Below are positions 1,606 to 47,307 of a stretch of DNA of 49,125 nucleotides, piece after piece. The notes under the pieces were generated by a model that had not been told where the DNA came from, searched no databases, and saw nothing but the letters and a program-made list of their open reading frames with translations. Every line of letters begins with the position of its first letter. Position 1 is the first letter of the stretch. The DNA is from Dehalococcoidales bacterium (lineage in GTDB: Bacteria; Chloroflexota; Dehalococcoidia; Dehalococcoidales; RBG-16-60-22), in assembly GCA_034430515.1 (NCBI GenBank), contig DAOUEP010000027.1, forward strand, positions 1-49,125, given 5' to 3'. The position numbers were made by a program, and so were the translations under genes.

Positions 1606-1663
1606 CGGCCCTATTGTAGCTTAAAGACGGGCCAGATGGCAAAGAGGAGGTGGTATCTACGGC

Positions 1664-1729
1664 ATAAGCCGAGGATGTGCCGAGGGTGGTTTGGGTGGGA
1701 ATAGATAACTCCGAGGGGCGGGGGCTGGA
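1664..1729 (+). repeat. Solo arm copy of the repeat family (core GGGTGGGAATAGATA at 1693-1707)
   Basis: ATAAGCCGAGGATGTGCCGAGGGTGGTTTGGGTGGGAATAGATAACTCCGAGGGGCGGGGGCTGGA is near-identical to the reverse complement of 10264-10332. Confidence 0.85.
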
Positions 1730-1748: not shown

Positions 1749-1824
1749 TGGAGCGGAAGACGAGATTCGAACTCGCGACCTTCTCCTTGGCAAGGAGACG
1801 TTCTAGCCACTGAACTACTTCCGC
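1749..1824 (-). tRNA. tRNA-Gly (anticodon GCC), CCA encoded
   Basis: The reverse complement reads GCGGAAGTAGTTCAGTGG...CTCCTTGCCAAGGAG...GGTTCGAATC...CTTCCGCTCCA. The cloverleaf folds and the anticodon loop is TTGCCAA. Confidence 0.92.
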
Positions 1825-7995: not shown

Positions 7996-8270
7996 TTTTC
8001 TTGAAGGCGGGGTAGTTTTTTACCTCGCCCTCTTTGTCCCTGTGAGGAAATCCCCCTTAATCCCCCTTTTTCAAAGGGGGAAACTGTGAAAGAAAGATAA
8101 GACGTTATAGCTTCTCCCTTTGGCAAAGGGAGAACGAGAGGGATTTTGGAGGGGAGGGGCAAAACCCTCGCGCTAAGCGGCGGATGCCGCGAGGGTGTTT
8201 ACCCGCCGAAGCTTCAGCGCAGGCGGGGCTAGGGTGGGAATAGATAACACCGAGGGGCGGAGAGGAGATA
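7993..8270 (+). repeat. Composite repeat element (modules M1, M2, M3 and M4 with insert; core at 8232-8246)
   Basis: It shares TAGTTTTCTTnAAGnCGGGGTAG...TACCTC with 33468-33505. Its hairpins CCCCCTTTTTCAAAGGGGG and CTCCCTTTGGCAAAGGGAG, and GCTAAGCGGCGGATGCCGCGAGGG...GGGTGGGAATAGATA, are shared with the 25.6, 33.7 and 45.8 kb copies. Confidence 0.9.
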
Positions 8271-8338: not shown

Positions 8339-8809
8339 ATTTACGCAATCATCGAAACCGGCGGCAAGCAGTATAAAGTAACCGAAGGCCAGACCCTCAA
8401 CGTCGACCTCCTGGAGAAGGCCAGCGGCCCGGTGGAGCTGGACAAAGTCCTGCTCATCGCCGACGGCGCTGACGTCACCGTGGGGAAGCCGGCCATCGCG
8501 GGCGCCAGGGTGCTGGCTACGGCCAAGGAAAACGGCCGCGCCCGAAAGATAATCGTCTTTAAATACAAGGCCAAGGTACGCTACCGCCGCAAGACCGGCC
8601 ACCGCCAGCCCTACACCACCATCAGCATCGATAAGATACTCCCGCCGGGGGCGGAGGCGCCCAAGCCGGTCGCCAAGAAAGCAGCTCCCAAGCCGACCGC
8701 AGAGAAGGCTTCGCCTAAACCGGCCGCAAAGAAAGCGTCGCCCAAGCCGGTCGCCAAGAAGGCGGCCCCGCGGCCCAAGAAAACAGAGGTAACCCCCGAT
8801 GGCGCATAA
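8339..8809 (+). CDS. rplU: 50S ribosomal protein L21 with Lys/Ala/Pro-rich C-terminal extension
   Basis: The canonical L21 N-terminus (I)[17 protein letters not shown] begins at the ATT at 8339, 6 nt after GGAGG (8328-8332). The track ORF from the GTG at 8432 is N-terminally truncated. Confidence 0.88.
8657..8785 (+). repeat. In-frame 27-bp tandem repeat (about 4.5 units) encoding (A/S)PKPxAKKA
   Basis: The units are gcgcccaagccggtcgccaagaaagca / gctcccaagccgaccgcagagaaggct / tcgcctaaaccggccgcaaagaaagcg / tcgcccaagccggtcgccaagaaggcg / a partial unit. Confidence 0.85.
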
Positions 8810-10263: not shown

Positions 10264-10332
10264 TCCAGCCCCCTCCGCCCCTCGGAGGTATCTATTCCCA
10301 CCCAAGCCGCCCTCGGCACATCCGCGGCTTAT
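10264..10332 (-). repeat. Solo arm copy of the repeat family (core complement at 10289-10303)
   Basis: Its reverse complement matches 1664-1729 almost base for base. Confidence 0.85.
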
Positions 10333-10351
10333 CCCGTAGCAGAAAAGTGTC

Positions 10352-10371
10352 ATTCCCGCGGAAGCGGGAAT
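10352..10371 (-). terminator. Hairpin ATTCCCGC-nnnn-GCGGGAAT downstream of coaE (possible terminator)
   Basis: It has an 8-bp stem. The minus strand continues GACACTTTTCTGC. A similar hairpin follows xerC at 30241-30266. Confidence 0.4.
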
Positions 10372-10380
10372 CCAGTTTCT

Positions 10381-21465: not shown

Positions 21466-21540
21466 GGCGCGCTCCCTGTCTCCCGCGCTAAAGCGGGATT
21501 ACATAACAGTCTAGCACGATACCACATCCTTGTACAACAT

Positions 21541-21606
21541 CCCCCCGCCCCCCTCGTTGTTATCTTTTCCCACCCACCCGCCCCCGGTGAAGCCACGGCT
21601 TAGCCC
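21541..21606 (-). repeat. Degenerate solo arm copy of the repeat family
   Basis: The reverse complement GGGCTAAGCCGTGGCTTCACCGGGGGCGGGTGGGTGGGAAAAGATAACAACGAGGGGGGCGGGGGG aligns with the 1664-1729 type. Confidence 0.7.
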
Positions 21607-21676
21607 GGAGGTTTACCACCCCTACCCCTATAAGCTATAATCAAAGTAGGGCCTTTTTCTCAATAAGGAGTCAACT

Positions 21677-23477: not shown

Positions 23478-24863
23478 TTGAAAGTAACCAGAGAGAAAAT
23501 CGAGAACCGCCAGGCCTATCTCACCGTGGCCATGGAGCCCGCCGAGATGGAAGCGGCCAAGACCGACGCCTACAAGCGCCTGGCGCAGCGGGCCGATATC
23601 CCCGGCTTCCGCAAGGGCAAGGCCCCCCGGGCGGTGGTGGAGCGCCACCTGGGCAAAGACCGCCTCCTCGAAGAGGCCGTCGAGCACCTGCTCCCCCAGG
23701 CCTACGAGCAGGCCGTCAAGGAGGACGCCATCGAGCCGTACGCCCGCCCGGAGGTGGAGATAACCCAGAGCGACCCGCTGGTCTTCAAGGCGGTGGTGCC
23801 GCTGGAGCCTACCGTGGAGCTAGGGGATTATCAATCTATCCGCATGAAGCCGGATAAGGTTGACATAACCAAGGACAAGATAAACGGCGTCCTCGAGGAG
23901 CTGCGCCACCAGCACGCCACCTGGGAGCCGGTGGAGCGGGCGCTGGCCTATGATGATTTAGCCGTCATCGATATCGACGCCACCGCCGACGACAAGCCCC
24001 TCATCAAGCGCCTCGACGTGCAGTACCAGGCGCTCCAGGACGCCACCACGCCGGTGCCGGGCTTCGTGGAACAGATTATCGGCATGAAGAAGGACGAGGC
24101 AAAAGAATTCAACCTCACCTTCCCGGCGGAATACCCCTCCGGCCCCGACCTGGCCGGCAAGGAGGCCCATTTCAAGGTAAAGCTCACCGAGATTAAAGAA
24201 GAAAAGCTGCCGCCCCTGGACGATAACCTGGCGGTGCAGGTAGGGGCGGAGTTCACCACGCTGGAACGCCTCCGCGAGGAGGTGGTTAAGAGCCTCCAGG
24301 TGCGCGGCGAGGAAAACGCCCGCATGGACCTGGAGGAGCGGGTTATCAACGCCGTTATCGACCAGTCGCAAGTTGAATACCCGCCGGTGCTGGTGGCGAT
24401 GGAGACCGAGCGCATCCTGAGCGAGCAGGAGCGGCGGCTCCAGCAGTCGGGGAAGGGGATGGACGACTATTTAAAGAGCCTCAACAAGACCGCCGAGCAG
24501 CTCCAGGAGGGCATCAAGCCGGTGGCCGCCAAGAACGTGGCCGCCTCGCTGGTGCTGAGCAAGGTGGCCGAGGCGGAGAAAATAGAGGTCAGCGACGAGG
24601 ACGTCCTCAACGGCATCCGCAACATGGCCCGGGGCGTCGCCGAGGACAAGCGCGAGGACATGGTCAAAATGCTGGATACGCCGCAGACCCGCCAGTCGCT
24701 CACCTCGTCCCTCAAGACGCGCAAGACCATTGAGCGGCTCACCGAGATAGCCCGCGGCCCGGCCAGGAAAACCAAGCCAGCCACCGGGGGCAAGACCGCC
24801 AAGCCCAAGGCGGCCAAACCCCGTAAGACTACCAAGAAGGAGACCAAGGAGGAGGAGAAATGA
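23478..24863 (+). CDS. tig: Trigger factor (with Lys-rich C-terminal tail)
   Basis: The GFRKGKAP ribosome-binding signature is present, with a PPIase-like middle domain. It ends in a TGA that overlaps the clpP ATG. Confidence 0.93.
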
Positions 24864-25486
24864 ATATAAATCCTACTAACGTCATACCGATGGTCATCGA
24901 GAGCGGCACCCGGGGCGAGCGCGCCTTTGATATCTACTCGCTCTTGCTCCGCGAGCGCATCGTCATGCTGGGCACGCCCATCAACGACCAGGTGGCCAAC
25001 GTTATCATCGCCCAGCTGCTCTACCTGGAGCGCGAAGACCCGGACAAGGACATCTCGCTCTACATCCACTCGCCCGGCGGCGTCATCAGCGCCGGTCTGG
25101 CTATCTACGACACGATGCAGCTCATCCGCCCCGCCGTAAGCACCATCTGCGTGGGTCTGGCGGCCAGCATGGGCACGGTGCTCCTCTGCGCCGGCGCCAA
25201 GGGCAAGCGCTACGCCTTGCCCAACGCCACCATCCACATGCATCAAGCCATGGGCGGCGCCCAGGGGCAGGCCTCCGATATCGTCATCGCCGCCCGCGAG
25301 ATAACGCGCCAGCAGGACACCATCAAGGACATCATCGTCAAGCATACCGGCCAGCCGCTGGACAAGGTCACCCACGATACCGACCGCGACTTCTACCTGA
25401 ACCCGGTGCAGGCGGTGGAGTACGGCATCGTCGACGAGGTGCTCCACAAGCCCGCCGAGGATAAGGAAAAGAAAGAGAAGAAATAA
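24860..25486 (+). CDS. clpP: ATP-dependent Clp protease proteolytic subunit
   Basis: The sequence contains YIHSPGG, GLAASMG (Ser) and IHMHQ (His). Confidence 0.95.
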
Positions 25487-25504: not shown

Positions 25505-25835
25505 TTAATCTCTAAGGGGTTCAAGGGGGACTCTCACCTCCCCCTTGCCCCCCCCGCCCGGAGATTTTTTATCCCACCCGGCCCGCCCGTTGGCATTCCG
25601 CCACTACTCACTGGTGTTTCCCCGTCCCGCCCCGGGAAAATCCTCCTTTAGTCCCCCTTTGCAAAGGGGGACAAACGTATGGGTTGCCGGCGGTGATTCT
25701 AAAGGAAAGTGGTATCGTCTCCCTTTCGTAAAGGGAGACGGAGAGGGATTTTGGTGGGGTAGGGGAAACTAAGAGATAAGCGGCGGATGCCGCGAGGGTG
25801 GCCAGGGTGGGAATAGATAACACCGATAGGGTGGG
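25505..25835 (+). repeat. Full-length composite repeat element with inverted terminal arms (core at 25805-25819; inverted core at 25570-25579)
   Basis: The left arm TTTTTTATCCCACCCGGCCCGCCCGTTGGCATTCCGCC is an imperfect inverted copy of the right arm GGCGGATGCCGCGAGGGTGGCCAGGGTGGGAATAGATAA. Internal hairpins are GTCCCCCTTTGCAAAGGGGGAC and GTCTCCCTTTCGTAAAGGGAGAC. Confidence 0.88.
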
Positions 25836-25908
25836 GCAAAGAGGTGTGAGGTAAGTTATTGCCTCCATTCTAAAGACAATTTAGCACTAAAGTACCACCC
25901 CGACCAAA

Positions 25909-25937
25909 TTGTCATCGCCATACCCCTGTGCTAGAAT
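25909..25937 (+). promoter_or_regulatory. Promoter of dprA-topA
   Basis: TTGTCA (25909-25914), a 17-nt spacer, then TGcTAGAAT (TAGAAT at 25932-25937). Confidence 0.65.
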
Positions 25938-27071: not shown

Positions 27072-29183
27072 ATGAGTAAGAAACTGGTTATCGTGGAATC
27101 CCCGGCCAAGGCCAGAACGCTGGGCAAGATACTGGGCCGGGGCTACAGCCTCAAGGCGTCGTTGGGGCACGTGCGCGACCTTCCCCGGGGCCAGATGGGG
27201 GTGGATATCGAAAACGGCTTTTCGCCCCGCTACGTGATACCTCGCGTCAAGACCAAGCTCGTCAACGAGCTCAAGCAGGCGGCCAAAGAGGCCAAGGAGA
27301 TTTACCTGGCCACCGACCCCGACCGCGAGGGCGAGGCCATCGCCTGGCACCTGGCCGAGCTTATCCGCAGCGACGACAAACCCTACCACCGCGTCGTCTT
27401 CCGCGAGATTACCGAGGAGGCCGTCCGGAGCGCCTTCGCCAGCCCGCGCGATATCGACATGCAGCTGGTGGACGCCCAGCAGGCGCGCCGCGTCCTGGAT
27501 AGACTGGTCGGCTATAAAATCTCGCCCCTGCTCTGGAGCAAGGTGCGCAAGCGCCTCTCCGCCGGGAGGGTGCAGTCGGTGGCGGTGAAAATCATCGCCG
27601 ACCGCGAGCGCGAGATTACGGCCTTCAAGCCGGTGGAGTACTGGGTCATCGAGGCCGAGCTCCGTCAGCCGAAGGATAGGACCGTCTTCCGCGCCACGCT
27701 CGTCGGGCTCTGCGGCGGCGGCAAGCTGGAGATTCATAACGAAAAAGAGGCGGACAAGATTGAAGCGGCGCTGAAAGACGCCGCCTACGGCGTGCTCAAC
27801 GTCGCCACCAAGAAGGCCGCCCGCCAGCCGGCGCCCCCCTTCACCACCAGCACCTTGCAGCAGGAGGCCTGGCGCAAGCTGAGATTTTCGGCCAAGCAAA
27901 CCATGGCCGTCGCCCAGCAGCTCTACGAGGGCCTGCCCCTGGGCAGCGAGGGCAGCGTCGGCCTGATTACCTACATGCGCACCGACTCCACCCGCATCGC
28001 CGGGTCGGCCATCGCCGAGACGCGCCAGTTCATCGGCGAGAAGTACGGCCCTAAATACCTGCCGCCGCGCCCCCGCGCCTTCACCGCCCGCAGCCGCGGC
28101 GCCCAGGAGGCTCACGAGGCCATCCGCCCCACCCGCACCTACCGCGAGCCGGGCGCCGTCAGGAGTTTCCTCAATAACAACCAGTTCCGCCTCTACGACC
28201 TCATCTGGAAGCGGCTGGTGGCCAGCCAGATGGCGGCGGCCCTCTTCAATAACACCACCGTGGACATCGAGGCCAGCGACGGCGACGACTACCTGCTGCG
28301 CACGGCGGCCTCGGTCAATACCTTCCCCGGCTTTATGACCCTCTACAGCGAGGGCAAGGACGAGGAAGAAGACGAGGCCAAAAAGACCCTCCCCGAGCTT
28401 GCCAAAGACGATAAGCTGGATCTCATTGATGTCCACCCCGACCGGCGCTTCACCCAGCCGCCGCCCCGCTATACCGAGGCCACCCTGGTGAAGACCCTGG
28501 AGCAGAACGGCATCGGCCGCCCCTCCACCTACGCCCCCACCATCGCCACCATCCAGGATCGGGAGTACGTCGTCAAGAGCAAGGGCGTATTCCAGCCCAC
28601 CGAGCTGGGTCTGGCCGTCAACGACCTGCTCGTTGAGCACTTTCCGGACATCATCAACGTCAAGTTTACCGCCGATATGGAAAACGAGCTGGACGACATC
28701 GCCAGCGCCGAGCGCGACTGGCCCGGCGTCATCGGCAAATTTTACGCCCCCTTCGACAGGGACTTGCAGAAGGCGCTGGCCACGGCGGAGCGGGTCAAGC
28801 TGGAGGACGAAAAGACCGGCGACGCCTGCCCCAAGTGCGGTAAGCCCCTCATCGTCAAGACGGGCCGCTTCGGCAAGTTCGTCGCCTGCTCCGGCTATCC
28901 GGAATGCCGCTACACGCAATCTTTCCAGGTGAAGACCGGCGTGAAATGCCCCCAGTGCGGCGGCGACCTGGTGCAGCGCATCTCCAAGAAGCGCCGGACC
29001 TTCTACGGCTGCGCCAACTATCCGGAGTGCACCTTCGCCACCAACTTAAAGCCCCTGCCCACCCCCTGCCCCAAGTGCGGCGGCCTGCTTACTCAGCGGG
29101 GGAAGCAGGCTATCTGTAATAAATGTGATTATAAAGGGAAGATACCGCAGGAAGAAAAAGAGGCGGAGAAAACTACGGGATAA
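27072..29183 (+). CDS. topA: DNA topoisomerase I
   Basis: It has a TOPRIM N-terminus ([10 protein letters not shown]), the active-site region ITYMRTDS, and C-terminal Zn ribbons (CPKCG, CPQCG). Confidence 0.96.
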
Positions 29184-29185
29184 GC

Positions 29186-29268
29186 CGTTGATGATGCAGG
29201 GCGGTTCACCCGCCGAAGCTTTAGCGTAGGCAGGCCGGGTGGGAATAGATAACATGGATGGGGCGGGG
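29186..29268 (+). repeat. Solo arm copy of the repeat family (core at 29237-29251)
   Basis: The sequence is GGTTCACCCGCCGAAGCTTTAGCGTAGGCAGGCCGGGTGGGAATAGATAAC. Confidence 0.8.
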
Positions 29269-29276
29269 TGGTTATC

Positions 29277-30233
29277 ATGGAAGATGATTGGGACAAATAT
29301 ATAAAGCTGTTTCTTGATTATCTTAAGGCGGAACGCAACGCGTCTCCGTACACCATGCGCAATTACCTGATATCACTCGGTGCGTTTGAGAGCTTCTGCA
29401 AAAAGGATAATACCTACACGCCTAAAAAGGTTGAAAAACCATTAGTACGCAGTTTTCTCAACCATCTCAATGAAACGGGAATTGCCCGTTCCAGCATCGC
29501 CCGTAATATGTCAGCGATACGCTCTTTCTTTAGGTATCTGCAGAGAGAAGAAATCGTGCCCAAGAACCCTGCAGCCAATATCACATCGCCCAAGCTAGAC
29601 CGCCGTTTACCCTCCTTTCTTACCAGGGAAGAGGTCAAGCATATTGTAGAATCACCAGGTTTGCCCAAACAACCTAATAAGATGTCATATCCGGTATTAC
29701 TACGCGATATTAGCTTGCTAGAATTACTTTACGCCTCCGGCCTGCGGGTAAGCGAGGTTGTCAGTATAGATTTGGAACAGATGAATCTTGACTATAATGA
29801 AATCCGGGTTAAAGGCAAAGGATCAAAAGAGAGAAACGTGTTGATTGGCGAGCCGGCAGCGCGAACCTTGAGGACTTATCTTAAAGAGGCCCGCCCGGTG
29901 CTTGCTGGAGATAAGAAGTCCCGGGCAGTTTTTATTACCAGCTACCAGGATGAAGACGGTATCCAGTCCGGCGAGCGTCTGACCGTGCGCCGGGTTCAGA
30001 AAATCATCAAGAAGTATTCTAGGGACATAGGTAAAAGGGTGCACCCGCATATCCTCCGCCACACCTTCGCCACCCACCTCCTCGACGGCGGCGCCGACCT
30101 CAAGGTGGTGCAGGAGCTTTTAGGCCACGCCGACCTGGCCTCGACGCAGATTTACACCCACGTCAGCCAGACTCGCGCCCGCCAGATTTACCTGGCCGCC
30201 CACCCCATGGCCAGGGGCAAGGGAGAAGAATAA
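29277..30233 (+). CDS. xerC: Tyrosine recombinase XerC/XerD family
   Basis: The N-terminal SAM-like core-binding domain reads YLKAERNASPYTMRNY. The catalytic residues are R...HILRHTFATHLL...GHADLASTQIYTHV. The dprA-topA-xerC synteny is conserved. Confidence 0.88.
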   Translation: MEDDWDKYIKLFLDYLKAERNASPYTMRNYLISLGAFESFCKKDNTYTPKKVEKPLVRSFLNHLNETGIARSSIARNMSAIRSFFRYLQREEIVPKNPAANITSPKLDRRLPSFLTREEVKHIVESPGLPKQPNKMSYPVLLRDISLLELLYASGLRVSEVVSIDLEQMNLDYNEIRVKGKGSKERNVLIGEPAARTLRTYLKEARPVLAGDKKSRAVFITSYQDEDGIQSGERLTVRRVQKIIKKYSRDIGKRVHPHILRHTFATHLLDGGADLKVVQELLGHADLASTQIYTHVSQTRARQIYLAAHPMARGKGEE

Positions 30234-33455: not shown

Positions 33456-33467
33456 CTGTAATTTTTA

Positions 33468-33818
33468 GTTTTCTTTAAGACGGGGTAGATTCTTTACCTC
33501 ACCCCCTGTATCCCCCTCTCCAAACTCAGTATCAGGAAAAACCATTTGTTCTTTGTTTGGAGAGGGGGAATTTTCATTAAGAGGGGCTAGCGCCCCTCTT
33601 CGCGGGCTACTCCCTGTAGTTAAATCCTTCTCACTCTCCCTTTACGAAAGGGAGACGATAGCCTTGTTCTTAAGGATTACCACCGGCAACCCGTTGGTTT
33701 GTCCCCCTTTGTAAAGGGGGATTAAAGGAGGATTTCAGAGGGGTAAAGGGGTGGCATCTCCGAGCTAAGCGGCGGATGCCGCGAGGGCGGCCAGGGTGGG
33801 AATAGATATCTAAGTGGG
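33468..33818 (+). repeat. Composite repeat element with modules M2 and M3 inverted relative to the other copies (core at 33794-33808)
   Basis: 33617-33662 is the reverse complement of the CGTCTCCCTTT..AAAGGGAGAGTGAGAAGGATTT module of 45.8 kb. 33676-33750 is the reverse complement of the 25630-25700 module. The terminal GCTAAGCGGCGGATGCCGCGAGGGCGGCCAGGGTGGGAATAGATA keeps the usual orientation. Confidence 0.88.
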
Positions 33819-33909
<91 letters not shown>

Positions 33910-45611: not shown

Positions 45612-45634
45612 ATTATCTTTAGTAGGATTTCCTG

Positions 45635-45663
45635 AGAGGGGCTTAACGCCCCTCTTTTCTTTT
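45635..45663 (+). terminator. Intrinsic terminator of the por-nuoEF-like operon
   Basis: AGAGGGGC-ttaac-GCCCCTCT followed by TTTTCTTTT. Confidence 0.8.
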
Positions 45664-45975
45664 ACCCCCTAACCCCCACTCCGCAGAGTTTTTCTTTCCC
45701 ACCCGGCCCGCCCTGTGGCATCCTGCCACCACTCGCTGGGGGTTTCCCCACCCCGCTCCGGTGAAAATCCTCCTTAATCCCCCTTTATGAAAGGGGGACA
45801 ATAGTTCTGGCACGATGGGTCGTCTCCCTTTGTAAAAGGGAGAGTGAGAAGGATTTTGGAGTGGGGTGGAGAAAACTCCGGGCTAAGCGGCGGATGCCGC
45901 GAGGGCAGTTTACCCGCCAGAGCCTTGGCGCAGGCGGGGCCAGGGTGGGAATAGATAGCTCCGGCAGGGTGGGGT
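45664..45975 (+). repeat. Full-length composite repeat element with inverted terminal arms (core at 45943-45957; inverted core at 45695-45704)
   Basis: It is collinear with 25546-25835 along its whole length, apart from one ~20-nt and one ~28-nt indel. Confidence 0.88.
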
Positions 45976-45988
45976 GGAGCCTACACTC

Positions 45989-46017
45989 TTGCGCGCCGTG
46001 ATGGCCTCGGCTATACT
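45989..46017 (+). promoter_or_regulatory. Promoter of tRNA-Pro
   Basis: TTGCGC, a 17-nt spacer, then TATACT, ending 8 nt before the tRNA. Confidence 0.6.
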
Positions 46018-46025
46018 GTAGCCGT

Positions 46026-46104
46026 CGGGGTGTGGCGCAGTCTGGTTTAGCGCGCAGCGTTTGGGACGCTGAGGTCGGTGGTTCAAATCCACTCACCCCG
46101 ACCA
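46026..46104 (+). tRNA. tRNA-Pro (anticodon TGG), CCA encoded
   Basis: The sequence is CGGGGTGTGGCGCAGTCTGG...CAGCGTTTGGGACGCTG...GGTTCAAATCCACTCACCCCGACCA. Confidence 0.88.
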
Positions 46105-46188
46105 GCCCGACCAAGTGGACATAATATCCACTTCACCCCGTGCATCGTTTTACCCTCAAATAGCCCGGGTTCCTGGCCGTATTCGCCG

Positions 46189-46217
46189 TTGACAATTTTT
46201 ATTGATGCGTGTAAAAT
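46189..46217 (+). promoter_or_regulatory. Promoter of nrpR
   Basis: TTGACA (46189-46194), a 17-nt spacer, then TAAAAT (46212-46217), in an AT-rich intergenic region. Confidence 0.7.
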
Positions 46218-46229
46218 TTCTAAGAATAC

Positions 46230-46243
46230 GGAAAACGGTTTCC
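46230..46243 (+). promoter_or_regulatory. Candidate NrpR operator GGAA-N6-TTCC
   Basis: GGAAAACGGTTTCC lies 13 nt downstream of the -10 box and 23 nt upstream of the nrpR ATG. It matches the palindromic operator consensus described for methanogen NrpR. Confidence 0.6.
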
Positions 46244-46266
46244 TATTACCTTATTTTGGAGCAACC

Positions 46267-47307
46267 ATGCCCTTTGAGTCGCAAGAGGTAGAGCGTAAGG
46301 AGCTGGCCATCCTCAGAATCCTGGGCGACTCCGCCGAGCCGGTCGGCGCCCGCGTCATCGCCCAGCGCCTCCACGAGCACGGCTACGAGCTGGGCGAGCG
46401 GGCGGTGCGCTACCACCTGCGTCTCATGGACGAGCGCGGTCTCACCTTCCTGGTCGGCCAGCGCGACGGACGCATCCTCACCGACAAGGGCATGGCCGAG
46501 GTGCAGTCGGCCCTGGTGGGCGATAAAGTCGGCTTCGCCAGCTCCCGCATCGAGACGCTCTCCTTCCGCACCTCTTTCGACAGCGCCGTCCGCCGCGGCC
46601 TGGTGCCGGTCAACCTGTCCTTCTACGCCCGGGAAGACTTCGAGCGGGCGCTCCGGGCGATGCGGCCCGCCTTCGAGGCCGGTTACGCCGCCAGCGACCT
46701 GGTAGCCGTGGCTGCCGAGGGCAAGCCCCTGGGCGACATGACGGTGCCGCCGGGCAAGATAGGGCTGGCCACCGTCTGCTCTCTGGTCTTTAACGGGGTG
46801 CTCCTCAAGGCGGGCGTGCCCATGGACTCGCGTTTCGGGGGGATTTTGCAGCTGCGCGGCCGCCAGGCCCGCCGCTTTACCGAGCTTATCGACTACGCCG
46901 GCTGCTCGCTGGACCCGTCGATGATTTTCATCAAGGCGCGGATGACCTCGGTGACCGACGTCGTCGCCACCGGCGACGGCGAGGTTCTGGCCAACTTCCG
47001 CGAGATTCCGGCGGTCTGCCGCCCCGTGGCCGAGGCGGTTATCGGGGGGCTGGAGGAGGCCGGTCTCCGGGGTCTGGCCGTCATGGGCGAGGCCAGCCAG
47101 CCGGTCTGCGAGATACCGGTGGGCCTCAACAAGATAGGCGTCGTCCTGCTGGGCGGCCTCAACCCGGTGGCCGCCGCCGAGGAGGCCGGTATCGCCGCCG
47201 ATAACCTGCCGATGAGCACCGTCATGGAATACGGCGACCTCGTTCCCTTCCGCGACGCCGTCATCGAGTACCGCGACCTGGTGCGTTTCTGGGAGACCTC
47301 AAGGTAG
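46267..47307 (+). CDS. nrpR: NrpR-family (winged-HTH plus DUF128) nitrogen regulatory repressor
   Basis: LAILRILGDSAEPVGARVIAQRLHEHGYELGERAVRYHLRLMDERGLT is the typical NrpR N-terminus. I chose the ATG at 46267; the track ORF runs back through tRNA-Pro. Confidence 0.8.
   Translation: MPFESQEVERKELAILRILGDSAEPVGARVIAQRLHEHGYELGERAVRYHLRLMDERGLTFLVGQRDGRILTDKGMAEVQSALVGDKVGFASSRIETLSFRTSFDSAVRRGLVPVNLSFYAREDFERALRAMRPAFEAGYAASDLVAVAAEGKPLGDMTVPPGKIGLATVCSLVFNGVLLKAGVPMDSRFGGILQLRGRQARRFTELIDYAGCSLDPSMIFIKARMTSVTDVVATGDGEVLANFREIPAVCRPVAEAVIGGLEEAGLRGLAVMGEASQPVCEIPVGLNKIGVVLLGGLNPVAAAEEAGIAADNLPMSTVMEYGDLVPFRDAVIEYRDLVRFWETSR

Follow-up and report, generated by a model that had tools for sequence, protein, structure and literature searches.

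What are the two elements of about 300 bp, each with mutually inverted ends, that occupy intergenic spacers in a stretch of 49,125 nucleotides from a Dehalococcoidales bacterium (contig DAOUEP010000027.1 of assembly GCA_034430515.1; the whole stretch is called the window below)? The initial annotation described them as non-autonomous mobile elements resembling MITEs (miniature transposable elements with inverted repeats), and regarded several shorter copies in the window as solo arms left by decay or recombination. According to the present data, we consider it probable (at roughly 60%) that the feature is a composite member of an interspersed mosaic repeat family, comparable to the REP (repetitive extragenic palindromic) sequences, the bacterial interspersed mosaic elements (BIMEs) and the REP doublets forming hairpins (REPINs), and built on a short unit that we call R. 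This family would assemble optional modules around R in a fixed polarity, namely small hairpins 5' of R, a hairpin (E) inside R and sometimes an inverted relative, R', joined head-to-head with the conserved cores facing outward; the 290-bp element would thus be an R'-hairpin-hairpin-R heterodimer copied whole to at least two loci. The window has a G+C content of about 63% and is densely filled with housekeeping genes; the host population belongs to salt-marsh sediment, from which the source metagenomes also come.

R is the basic unit of these structures, a non-palindromic, G-rich and intergenic sequence of 70-85 nt with the consensus ACTACGGGCTAAGCCGCGGATGATACGAGGGCGGCCT-GGGTGGGAATAGATA-ACnCCGAGGGGCGGGG. 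Its 15-nt core, GGGTGGGAATAGATA, occurs in the window in seven exact copies and one with a single mismatch, and when up to three mismatches are allowed there are 11 matches where 0.9 would be expected. Profile search identified eight canonical R copies in the window. The unit is present in 8 of the 23 spacers of at least 60 nt and in all four of those longer than 350 nt, including the 422-nt spacer from clpP (24860-25486) to dprA, which holds the first composite (element A), and the 414-nt spacer from an Fe-S protein gene to tRNA-Pro (46026-46104), which holds the second (element B). The alignment of 97 R units gives the consensus AAAACTACGGGCTAAGCCGnGGATGATnCGAGGGCGGCnnGGGTGGGAATAGATAACACnGAnGGGG.. 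and the invariant positions GGG-N5-GGGTGGGAA-AGATA, which coincide with the G-runs plus AATAGATA.

Beyond the window, one genome per bacterial or archaeal species was scanned with an exact pattern consisting of the core and the G-rich tail, and at least 108 loci were found in at least 38 assemblies, nearly all of them labelled Dehalococcoidales, Dehalococcoidaceae or Dehalococcoidia. For the family analysis, the DNA around 168 core-bearing R copies was fetched (about 750 kb), and in it the R profile gave 184 hits, 168 with the core. Conservation of the core was assessed on 43 copies free of ascertainment, that is, copies found through the 5' part of R that do not satisfy the search pattern, plus the window copies. 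Their cores were exact in 22 cases, carried one mismatch in 10 and were worse in 11, whereas outside the core the identity between copies falls to 72-77%, indicating that the core is under much stronger constraint than its surroundings. Copies of the same genome resemble each other slightly more than copies of different genomes (76.9% versus 71.8% identity), and the nearest neighbour of a copy lies in its own genome 28 times, against 10.6 expected. In the source metagenomes the word depth over the core reaches about 80-100 times that of the flanking single-copy DNA, and contigs of three other samples end 59-187 nt after clpP, at or inside element A. No R was found in 305 kb around clpP of 80 metagenome relatives whose ClpP is 77-92% identical, so the distribution of the family is patchy. 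In the literature searched, the core sequence appears in no relevant context and interspersed repeats in Dehalococcoidia are not described; the R family is probably an undescribed interspersed mosaic repeat family of the Dehalococcoidales.

Two wider distributions were considered and rejected. Spread across phyla was suggested by three bins labelled Deltaproteobacteria, but at least two of them share synteny and proteins of 48-73% identity with Dehalococcoidales bins, and by this sequence comparison their labels are probably mistaken. The R-related units in bins with this label are of the short form described below (L095, L100, L115, L122 and L137). As to presence in viral contigs, the 15-mer gave 37 matches, all attributable to chance and none accompanied by the rest of the unit.

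The two long copies first noted at 25546-25835 and 45664-45975 are present where they had been placed. In a global alignment of 25530-25850 with 45655-45990, 243 of 284 ungapped columns are identical (86%), with left arms that are 80% and right arms that are 85% identical. Collinearity over the full length was borne out, although there are more indels than the two originally counted, the largest being an extra 31-nt hairpin at 45908-45940, within B's right arm, and the absence of about 25 nt from the central spacer of the same element. The arms do bracket two internal hairpin modules, and the order R', two hairpins, R is the same in both elements, module C of element A being an inverted relative of module B. 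R has an inverted relative in the left arm of A, whose core is GGGTGGGATAAAAAA and which contains a short hairpin, GTGGCGGAATGCCAAC. The composite has been duplicated as a whole and occupies two loci or more. Over the left arm of A the metagenome word depth is about 1x, over that of B it is 7-16x the baseline, and both elements are unchanged in every sample that could be read. A third dimer of the host population, on a 3982-nt contig of the same depth in one sample, has a spacer of 31 nt without hairpins. The coordinates of all these features, and of the other R copies of the window, are collected in the table.

Table. Composite elements, their parts and the other copies of R in the window.
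Feature	Positions	Strand	Description
Composite element A	25530-25852	.	R' arm, hairpin B, spacer, hairpin C, R arm; quasi-palindrome over its whole length
Left arm of A (R')	25541-25644	-	R' profile E=1.9e-16; R profile only E=0.2
Hairpin module B of A	25638-25675	.	stem-loop TCCCCCTTTGCAAAGGGGGA at 25652-25671, flank AAAATCCTCC
Hairpin module C of A	25713-25751	.	TCTCCCTTTCGTAAAGGGAGA at 25718-25738, flank GGAGAGGGATTTT
Right arm of A (canonical R)	25756-25837	+	nhmmer E=1.3e-17; core 25805-25819; G-rich tail to 25837
Composite element B	45660-45985	.	order of parts as in element A
Left arm of B (R')	45666-45771	-	R' profile E=5.2e-17; R profile E=0.001
Hairpin pair of B	45778-45843	.	B 45778-45798, C 45823-45843
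Right arm of B (canonical R)	45858-45978	+	interrupted by E hairpin at 45908-45940; core 45943-45957
Solo R	1643-1726	+	profile; 23 nt from 3' end of tRNA-Gly (1749-1824, minus strand)
Composite without left arm	8041-8266	+	hairpins 8061-8081 and 8113-8133, then R with E hairpin 8147-8266, core 8232-8246
Solo R	10269-10346	-	profile; between convergent genes
Solo R	21540-21628	-	profile; core with one mismatch; divergent promoter region
R with E hairpin insertion	29161-29271	+	profile; between topA and a low-GC XerC/D-like recombinase gene
Composite, hairpin block inverted relative to A	33622-33824	+	R = 33742-33824

The inverted ends, first described as about 45 nt long and roughly 80% identical, are real, but the symmetry is not limited to them. 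In A the ends are 78% identical over 36 columns at the coordinates first given and 71% over the 97 columns of the full arms, and in B they are 76% identical over 45 columns; against dinucleotide shuffles this corresponds to z = 8.2 and z = 3.5, respectively. When half-elements with their hairpin modules are compared, the values rise to 12.6 for A and 10.8 for B, and each element is predicted to fold into one hairpin of about 320 nt (-170 kcal/mol, z -8.0, for A and -177 kcal/mol, z -6.5, for B). Between A and B the long stem shows no compensatory changes, and 12 of 20 single changes break pairs, which indicates that the palindrome derives from common descent of its halves and not from selection for pairing.

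These very stable folds might point to a structured RNA, in which the long hairpin or R itself would serve as a terminator, an RNase target, a stabiliser of mRNA or a small RNA. The small perfect hairpins, TCYCCCTTT-N3-AAAGGGRGA, could be taken in the same sense, as their stems are retained while the loops vary and a compensated change of C-G to T-A separates their two variants, and so could the E hairpins, which have different stems at the same site of R. However, palindromic DNA repeats retain stems without any role as RNA, and, besides the lack of compensation in the long stem, R has no consensus fold: RNAalifold found 0 base pairs in the 97 aligned units, whichever strand was used, and the folding of individual units was not superior to that of shuffled sequences (z -2 to +1). 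No Rfam family matched the elements at gathering or permissive thresholds. The four possible arrangements of R relative to its flanking genes are represented by 31, 26, 30 and 34 copies, thus without orientation bias, and element B stands after a terminator-like hairpin and before a promoter. We therefore regard a function as structured RNA as very improbable. Among public RNA runs the spacer occurs in none, and the sole metatranscriptome with the organism is too thin to show transcription.

As to transcriptional context, element A lies between clpP and a promoter-like site of dprA (25909-25937), and element B between an intrinsic-terminator-like hairpin with a T-run (45634-45656) and the promoter region of tRNA-Pro. 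With a terminator-like hairpin before B and promoter-like sites after both, the elements fall in the gap between transcription units. This position, together with the absence of orientation preference and of an RNA fold and with the turnover between near-identical strains described below, shows that the R family acts at the DNA level.

How the modules are put together can be seen across genomes. The small hairpins lie within 150 nt 5' of R, in the orientation of R, in 34 of 40 cases, and a longer order recurs in several genomes, consisting of a CCCCCTCTCC/GGAGAGGGGG hairpin, a AAGAGGGGC-N4-GCCCCTCTT hairpin, the hairpin pair and R. In the short form ('type 2') the AAGAGGGGC-N4-GCCCCTCTT hairpin is fused directly to the core; a role of this form as a cis-regulatory leader was considered and discarded, as its flanking genes are unrelated and its orientations mixed. 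The E hairpin, in the copies that have it, enters R at one fixed point, with stems that differ among copies. Within the window, further hairpin modules of the CCCCCTCTCC..GGAGAGGGGG and AAGAGGGGC-N4-GCCCCTCTT types were noted at 33480-33612, 45634-45656, 7996-8035 and 33465-33505, and in these regions a GGCGGGGTAG..TACCTCGCC hairpin directly follows two stop codons. The hairpin modules upstream of R in the window keep the same order in other genomes.

The initial annotation had listed four shorter copies, which are real units but correspond to the right arm only, since the left arm is a distinct variant; the composites at 8041-8266 and 33622-33824 were absent from it. In the latter, 33622-33735 is 85% complementary to 25638-25751, and its R overlaps the 3' end of tRNA-Ser (33819-33907, minus strand). 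The tRNA-Ser/R junction is identical in the genome of another species (L045:3809-3870), the G-rich tail of R merging into the complement of the tRNA 3' end, and R units abut the 3' ends of both tRNA-Gly (1726-1749) and tRNA-Ser (33819-33824). A second hairpin repeat, CTGGATTCCCGC-loop-GCGGGAATGACA at 10347-10380, abuts one solo R of the window, and in several genomes (L149, L059 and L147, for example) this repeat often adjoins the tail or the head of R. In three samples, contigs of low depth connect position 33613, the left border of the composite at 33.6 kb, with position 45763 at element B's hairpin block; a further copy in the genome that carries these modules too is their most likely source.

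The variant R' is not peculiar to the window. Sequences resembling the left arms were found in the bins of two further species, one with L133, L102 and L114 and the other with L055 and L056. They have in common a short hairpin within the unit and the altered core GGGTGGGA(T/A)A(A/G)AA. Each of the seven strong R' hits, from the window and these two genomes, is paired head-to-head with a canonical R, at spacings from 13 nt to about 220 nt, and no solo R' was found among them. The R'/R dimer is thus a genuine and conserved assembly form of the family. Solo or tandem R units outnumber dimers by at least 10:1, and perhaps one unit in ten belongs to a dimer. Of the close pairs among the 168 units, 15 are direct tandems, in several of which the period is about 77 nt, and 3 are inverted. 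All three inverted pairs are head-to-head with cores outward, and no tail-to-tail pair was found among the 168 units. Given this numerical excess, the direct tandems and the intact core (exact in 22 of 43 copies), the solo units are not decay products, as had been supposed; R is the primary unit, with the dimer as one of its forms of assembly, much as in REP/BIME systems.

These observations bear directly on the possibility of a classical non-autonomous MITE, in which R' and R would be terminal inverted repeats bound by a DDE transposase encoded elsewhere and the solo units half-elements produced by deletion or abortive transposition. Such an element would agree with the significant inverted repetition of the arms, the outward cores of every dimer, the occurrence of the composite at two or more loci and of a third dimer elsewhere, and with the strain-level polymorphism and patchy phylogenetic distribution. 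The copies, however, show neither the borders nor the partners of such an element. No direct repeats are visible around A or B, and over 89 units the longest direct repeat in a unit's own flanks averaged 6.33 nt versus 6.29 nt in unrelated flanks, a comparison beyond whose reach duplications of 2-3 bp would lie. Similarity between copies fades in the variable G-rich tail, and the best-conserved part lies 10-25 nt inside this ragged end and not at the tip. In the approximately 750 kb of R flanks, among 648 clustered neighbour proteins, no recurrent transposase was found and likewise no REP-associated tyrosine transposase (RAYT), so that no autonomous element came to light around the 168 copies. 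Inverted R pairs 3-5 kb apart enclose only housekeeping genes, encoding tRNA synthetases, GroEL, UvrB, MetK and SAH (S-adenosylhomocysteine) hydrolase. Taken with the excess of intact solos and of direct tandems, these results make a MITE unlikely. The MITE interpretation is partly supported, by the inverted-arm architecture and by the strain-level replacement, but target duplications, sharp ends and, in these flanks, a transposase were not found; cut-and-paste transposition of an element with terminal inverted repeats is the less likely course.

The evidence for turnover comes from the spacer between hisI and rplU. The window allele is 271 nt long (7996-8266) and contains a terminator-like hairpin, two hairpins and an R with E, while the dominant strain of one sample and contigs of two JGI (Joint Genome Institute) samples have an allele of 90 nt (L232:569-658, L230 and L233). 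This shorter allele consists of a solo R, only 67% identical, whose E stem is different and which ends after GGGTGGG. The flanks of the two alleles are 98.8% and 99.8% identical, and the break points fall at the hisI stop codon and at the end of the R tail. This is a replacement at an occupied site and not a clean empty site, and its presence between near-identical flanks indicates fast turnover at the DNA level. An empty site at clpP was sought in relatives among 80 metagenome loci, but gene order downstream of clpP differs and there is no orthologous spacer. For three flanking genes, a look-up of the exact protein gave no record. In other samples the alleles of A and B are either identical to those of the window, with both elements present in all samples checked, or could not be resolved, the short-sided joints leading to other repeat copies. 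A 17-nt indel at 25869-25885, just downstream of element A, distinguishes the window from contig L040 of another sample, in which the element itself is identical.

A host-functional DNA site is possible, though in our opinion doubtful. The motif GGG-N6-GGGTGGG-AATAGATA-N6-9-GGGGYGGGG would then be a putative site for a protein of the nucleoid, of DNA topology or of transcription, or a candidate G-quadruplex insulator, and its copies would be kept by selection and not by selfish spread, an idea that overlaps with the mosaic repeat family. It would account for the core's conservation, much higher than elsewhere in the unit, with invariant positions that are exactly the G-runs and AATAGATA, for the location in the gap between terminator and promoter and for one site being occupied in two species. 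The G4Hunter score of core plus tail is 1.2-1.6, and a quadruplex with a long central loop is possible there by this prediction. In addition, TTGAC boxes of -35 type, accompanied by plausible -10 boxes, are concentrated 26-46 nt downstream of the core, with an orientation bias of 14:3. Nevertheless, their spacing to the core is not fixed and such a promoter accompanies only about 10% of the copies, and relatives with 77-92% identical ClpP do without the element, which is therefore dispensable. The R core might also be neither a decaying repeat nor an analogue of REP, and be read instead as a functional, quadruplex-prone recognition element, GGGTGGG-AATAGATA-N-GGGGYGGGG, maintained across an order of uncultured bacteria, either as the end of a new non-autonomous element that inserts beside hairpins or terminators without target duplication or as an insulating host site; we hold this to be possible, though likewise doubtful.

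Among known systems, R is filed as a bacterial interspersed mosaic repeat and not as a MITE or a REP sequence, because it is not palindromic and shows neither a target duplication nor, in the flanks examined, an autonomous partner with the same termini. The closest organisation is that of the BIME/REP sequences of E. coli and other Enterobacteriaceae, together with that of the REPINs (PMC3733652, PMC3337134). Like the BIMEs, the R family is strictly intergenic, lies between transcription units, is shared across related species, has no target duplications and reaches tens to hundreds of copies per genome, and its short unit can be found singly, paired in inverted fashion with a second variant, or arrayed in tandem, with variable motifs as spacers between the units. 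The heterodimers, the placement of 34 of 40 hairpins 5' of R, the tandems of about 77 nt and the module order kept across genomes are all features of a BIME. The difference between R' and R recalls the Y/Z pairs in E. coli BIMEs, or the unlike ends of a transposon. On the other hand, REP units are themselves hairpins of 20-40 nt, whereas R is 70-85 nt long and without a fold, its hairpins being separate modules, and most R units are singletons.

In the case of REPINs, which are inverted REP doublets mobilised by RAYT (Bertels and Rainey; PMC3337134), the head-to-head doublet that can fold as one hairpin, the singletons beside doublets and the lack of target duplication are shared with the R family. 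However, in REPIN-rich genomes doublets rule and singlets are remnants, while here singlets dominate with an intact core, the arms are the different variants R' and R, and the flanks showed no RAYT gene. Nor does the make-up of the 168 units suit a doublet family, as their close pairs are direct in 15 cases and inverted in 3, beside about seven R'/R dimers. A GTAG (or CGTC) tetranucleotide conserved at one end is a feature of REP and REPIN sequences (PMC3733652). The start of the R consensus, ..AACTACGGG, reads GTAG on the other strand; it is only moderately conserved and does not lie beside a hairpin. The Correia elements of Neisseria are likewise intergenic, 100-300 bp long, with inverted arms, close to promoters or terminators and polymorphic between strains, but they have sharp terminal repeats of 26 bp and a TA target duplication, in contrast to the ragged ends of the R family and its lack of duplication. 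The BOX elements of Streptococcus pneumoniae (boxA, boxB and boxC) also combine optional or repeated modules in a fixed order, with stable predicted folds; their sequence is unrelated and they have neither an invariant G-rich core nor head-to-head heterodimers.

We infer that the mosaic family spreads and is rearranged without leaving a target duplication. The mechanism could lie in recombination or gene conversion between its copies, or in an enzyme acting in trans, single-strand, REP-type or site-specific, that recognises the core. The core would be kept intact by the binding of this enzyme or of a host protein. Several points weigh against this interpretation. Mobility itself is deduced from copy number, patchy distribution and one replacement polymorphism, with no mobilising enzyme found, and the hisI-rplU polymorphism could also be explained as allelic divergence of a fast-evolving spacer moved by homologous recombination. 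R is non-palindromic, unlike REP, so that the analogy with REP and BIME sequences is one of organisation and not of sequence type. Copies at the same place in different species, as at tRNA-Ser in the window and in L045, fit old, retained and possibly useful sites equally well. Finally, all the related sequences belong to fragmented metagenome bins, which makes counts per genome rough.

Other features of the window deserve mention. The XerC/D-like tyrosine recombinase gene at 29268-30233 begins directly after an R unit and topA; its third-position G+C is 0.59, versus about 0.87 in its neighbours, and the 1-kb bin around it drops to 50% G+C. This region may be foreign DNA. On the minus strand, 6719-6803 matches the Rfam 'pan motif' with 41.7 bits (gathering threshold 36.2) upstream of a minus-strand gene, and the rplU (L21) reading frame contains four tandem 27-nt repeats (8658-8769) in its C-terminal portion. 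Directly after tRNA-Pro, 46078-47307 encodes an NrpR-like regulator (HTH_12 and NRD1_2 domains), of a family best known from archaea; as the listed start overlaps the tRNA, the true start is probably later.

The Dehalococcoidales are abundant and mostly uncultured sediment bacteria with small genomes, and a repeat occurring about every 6 kb causes their metagenome assemblies to break in intergenic regions. The R family can serve as a lineage marker, and it offers a natural system for studying the maintenance and spread of a non-palindromic unit whose 15-nt core is almost invariant. If this core is a protein-binding or quadruplex site, it would give access to chromosome organisation or to the insulation of transcription in a group without genetics.

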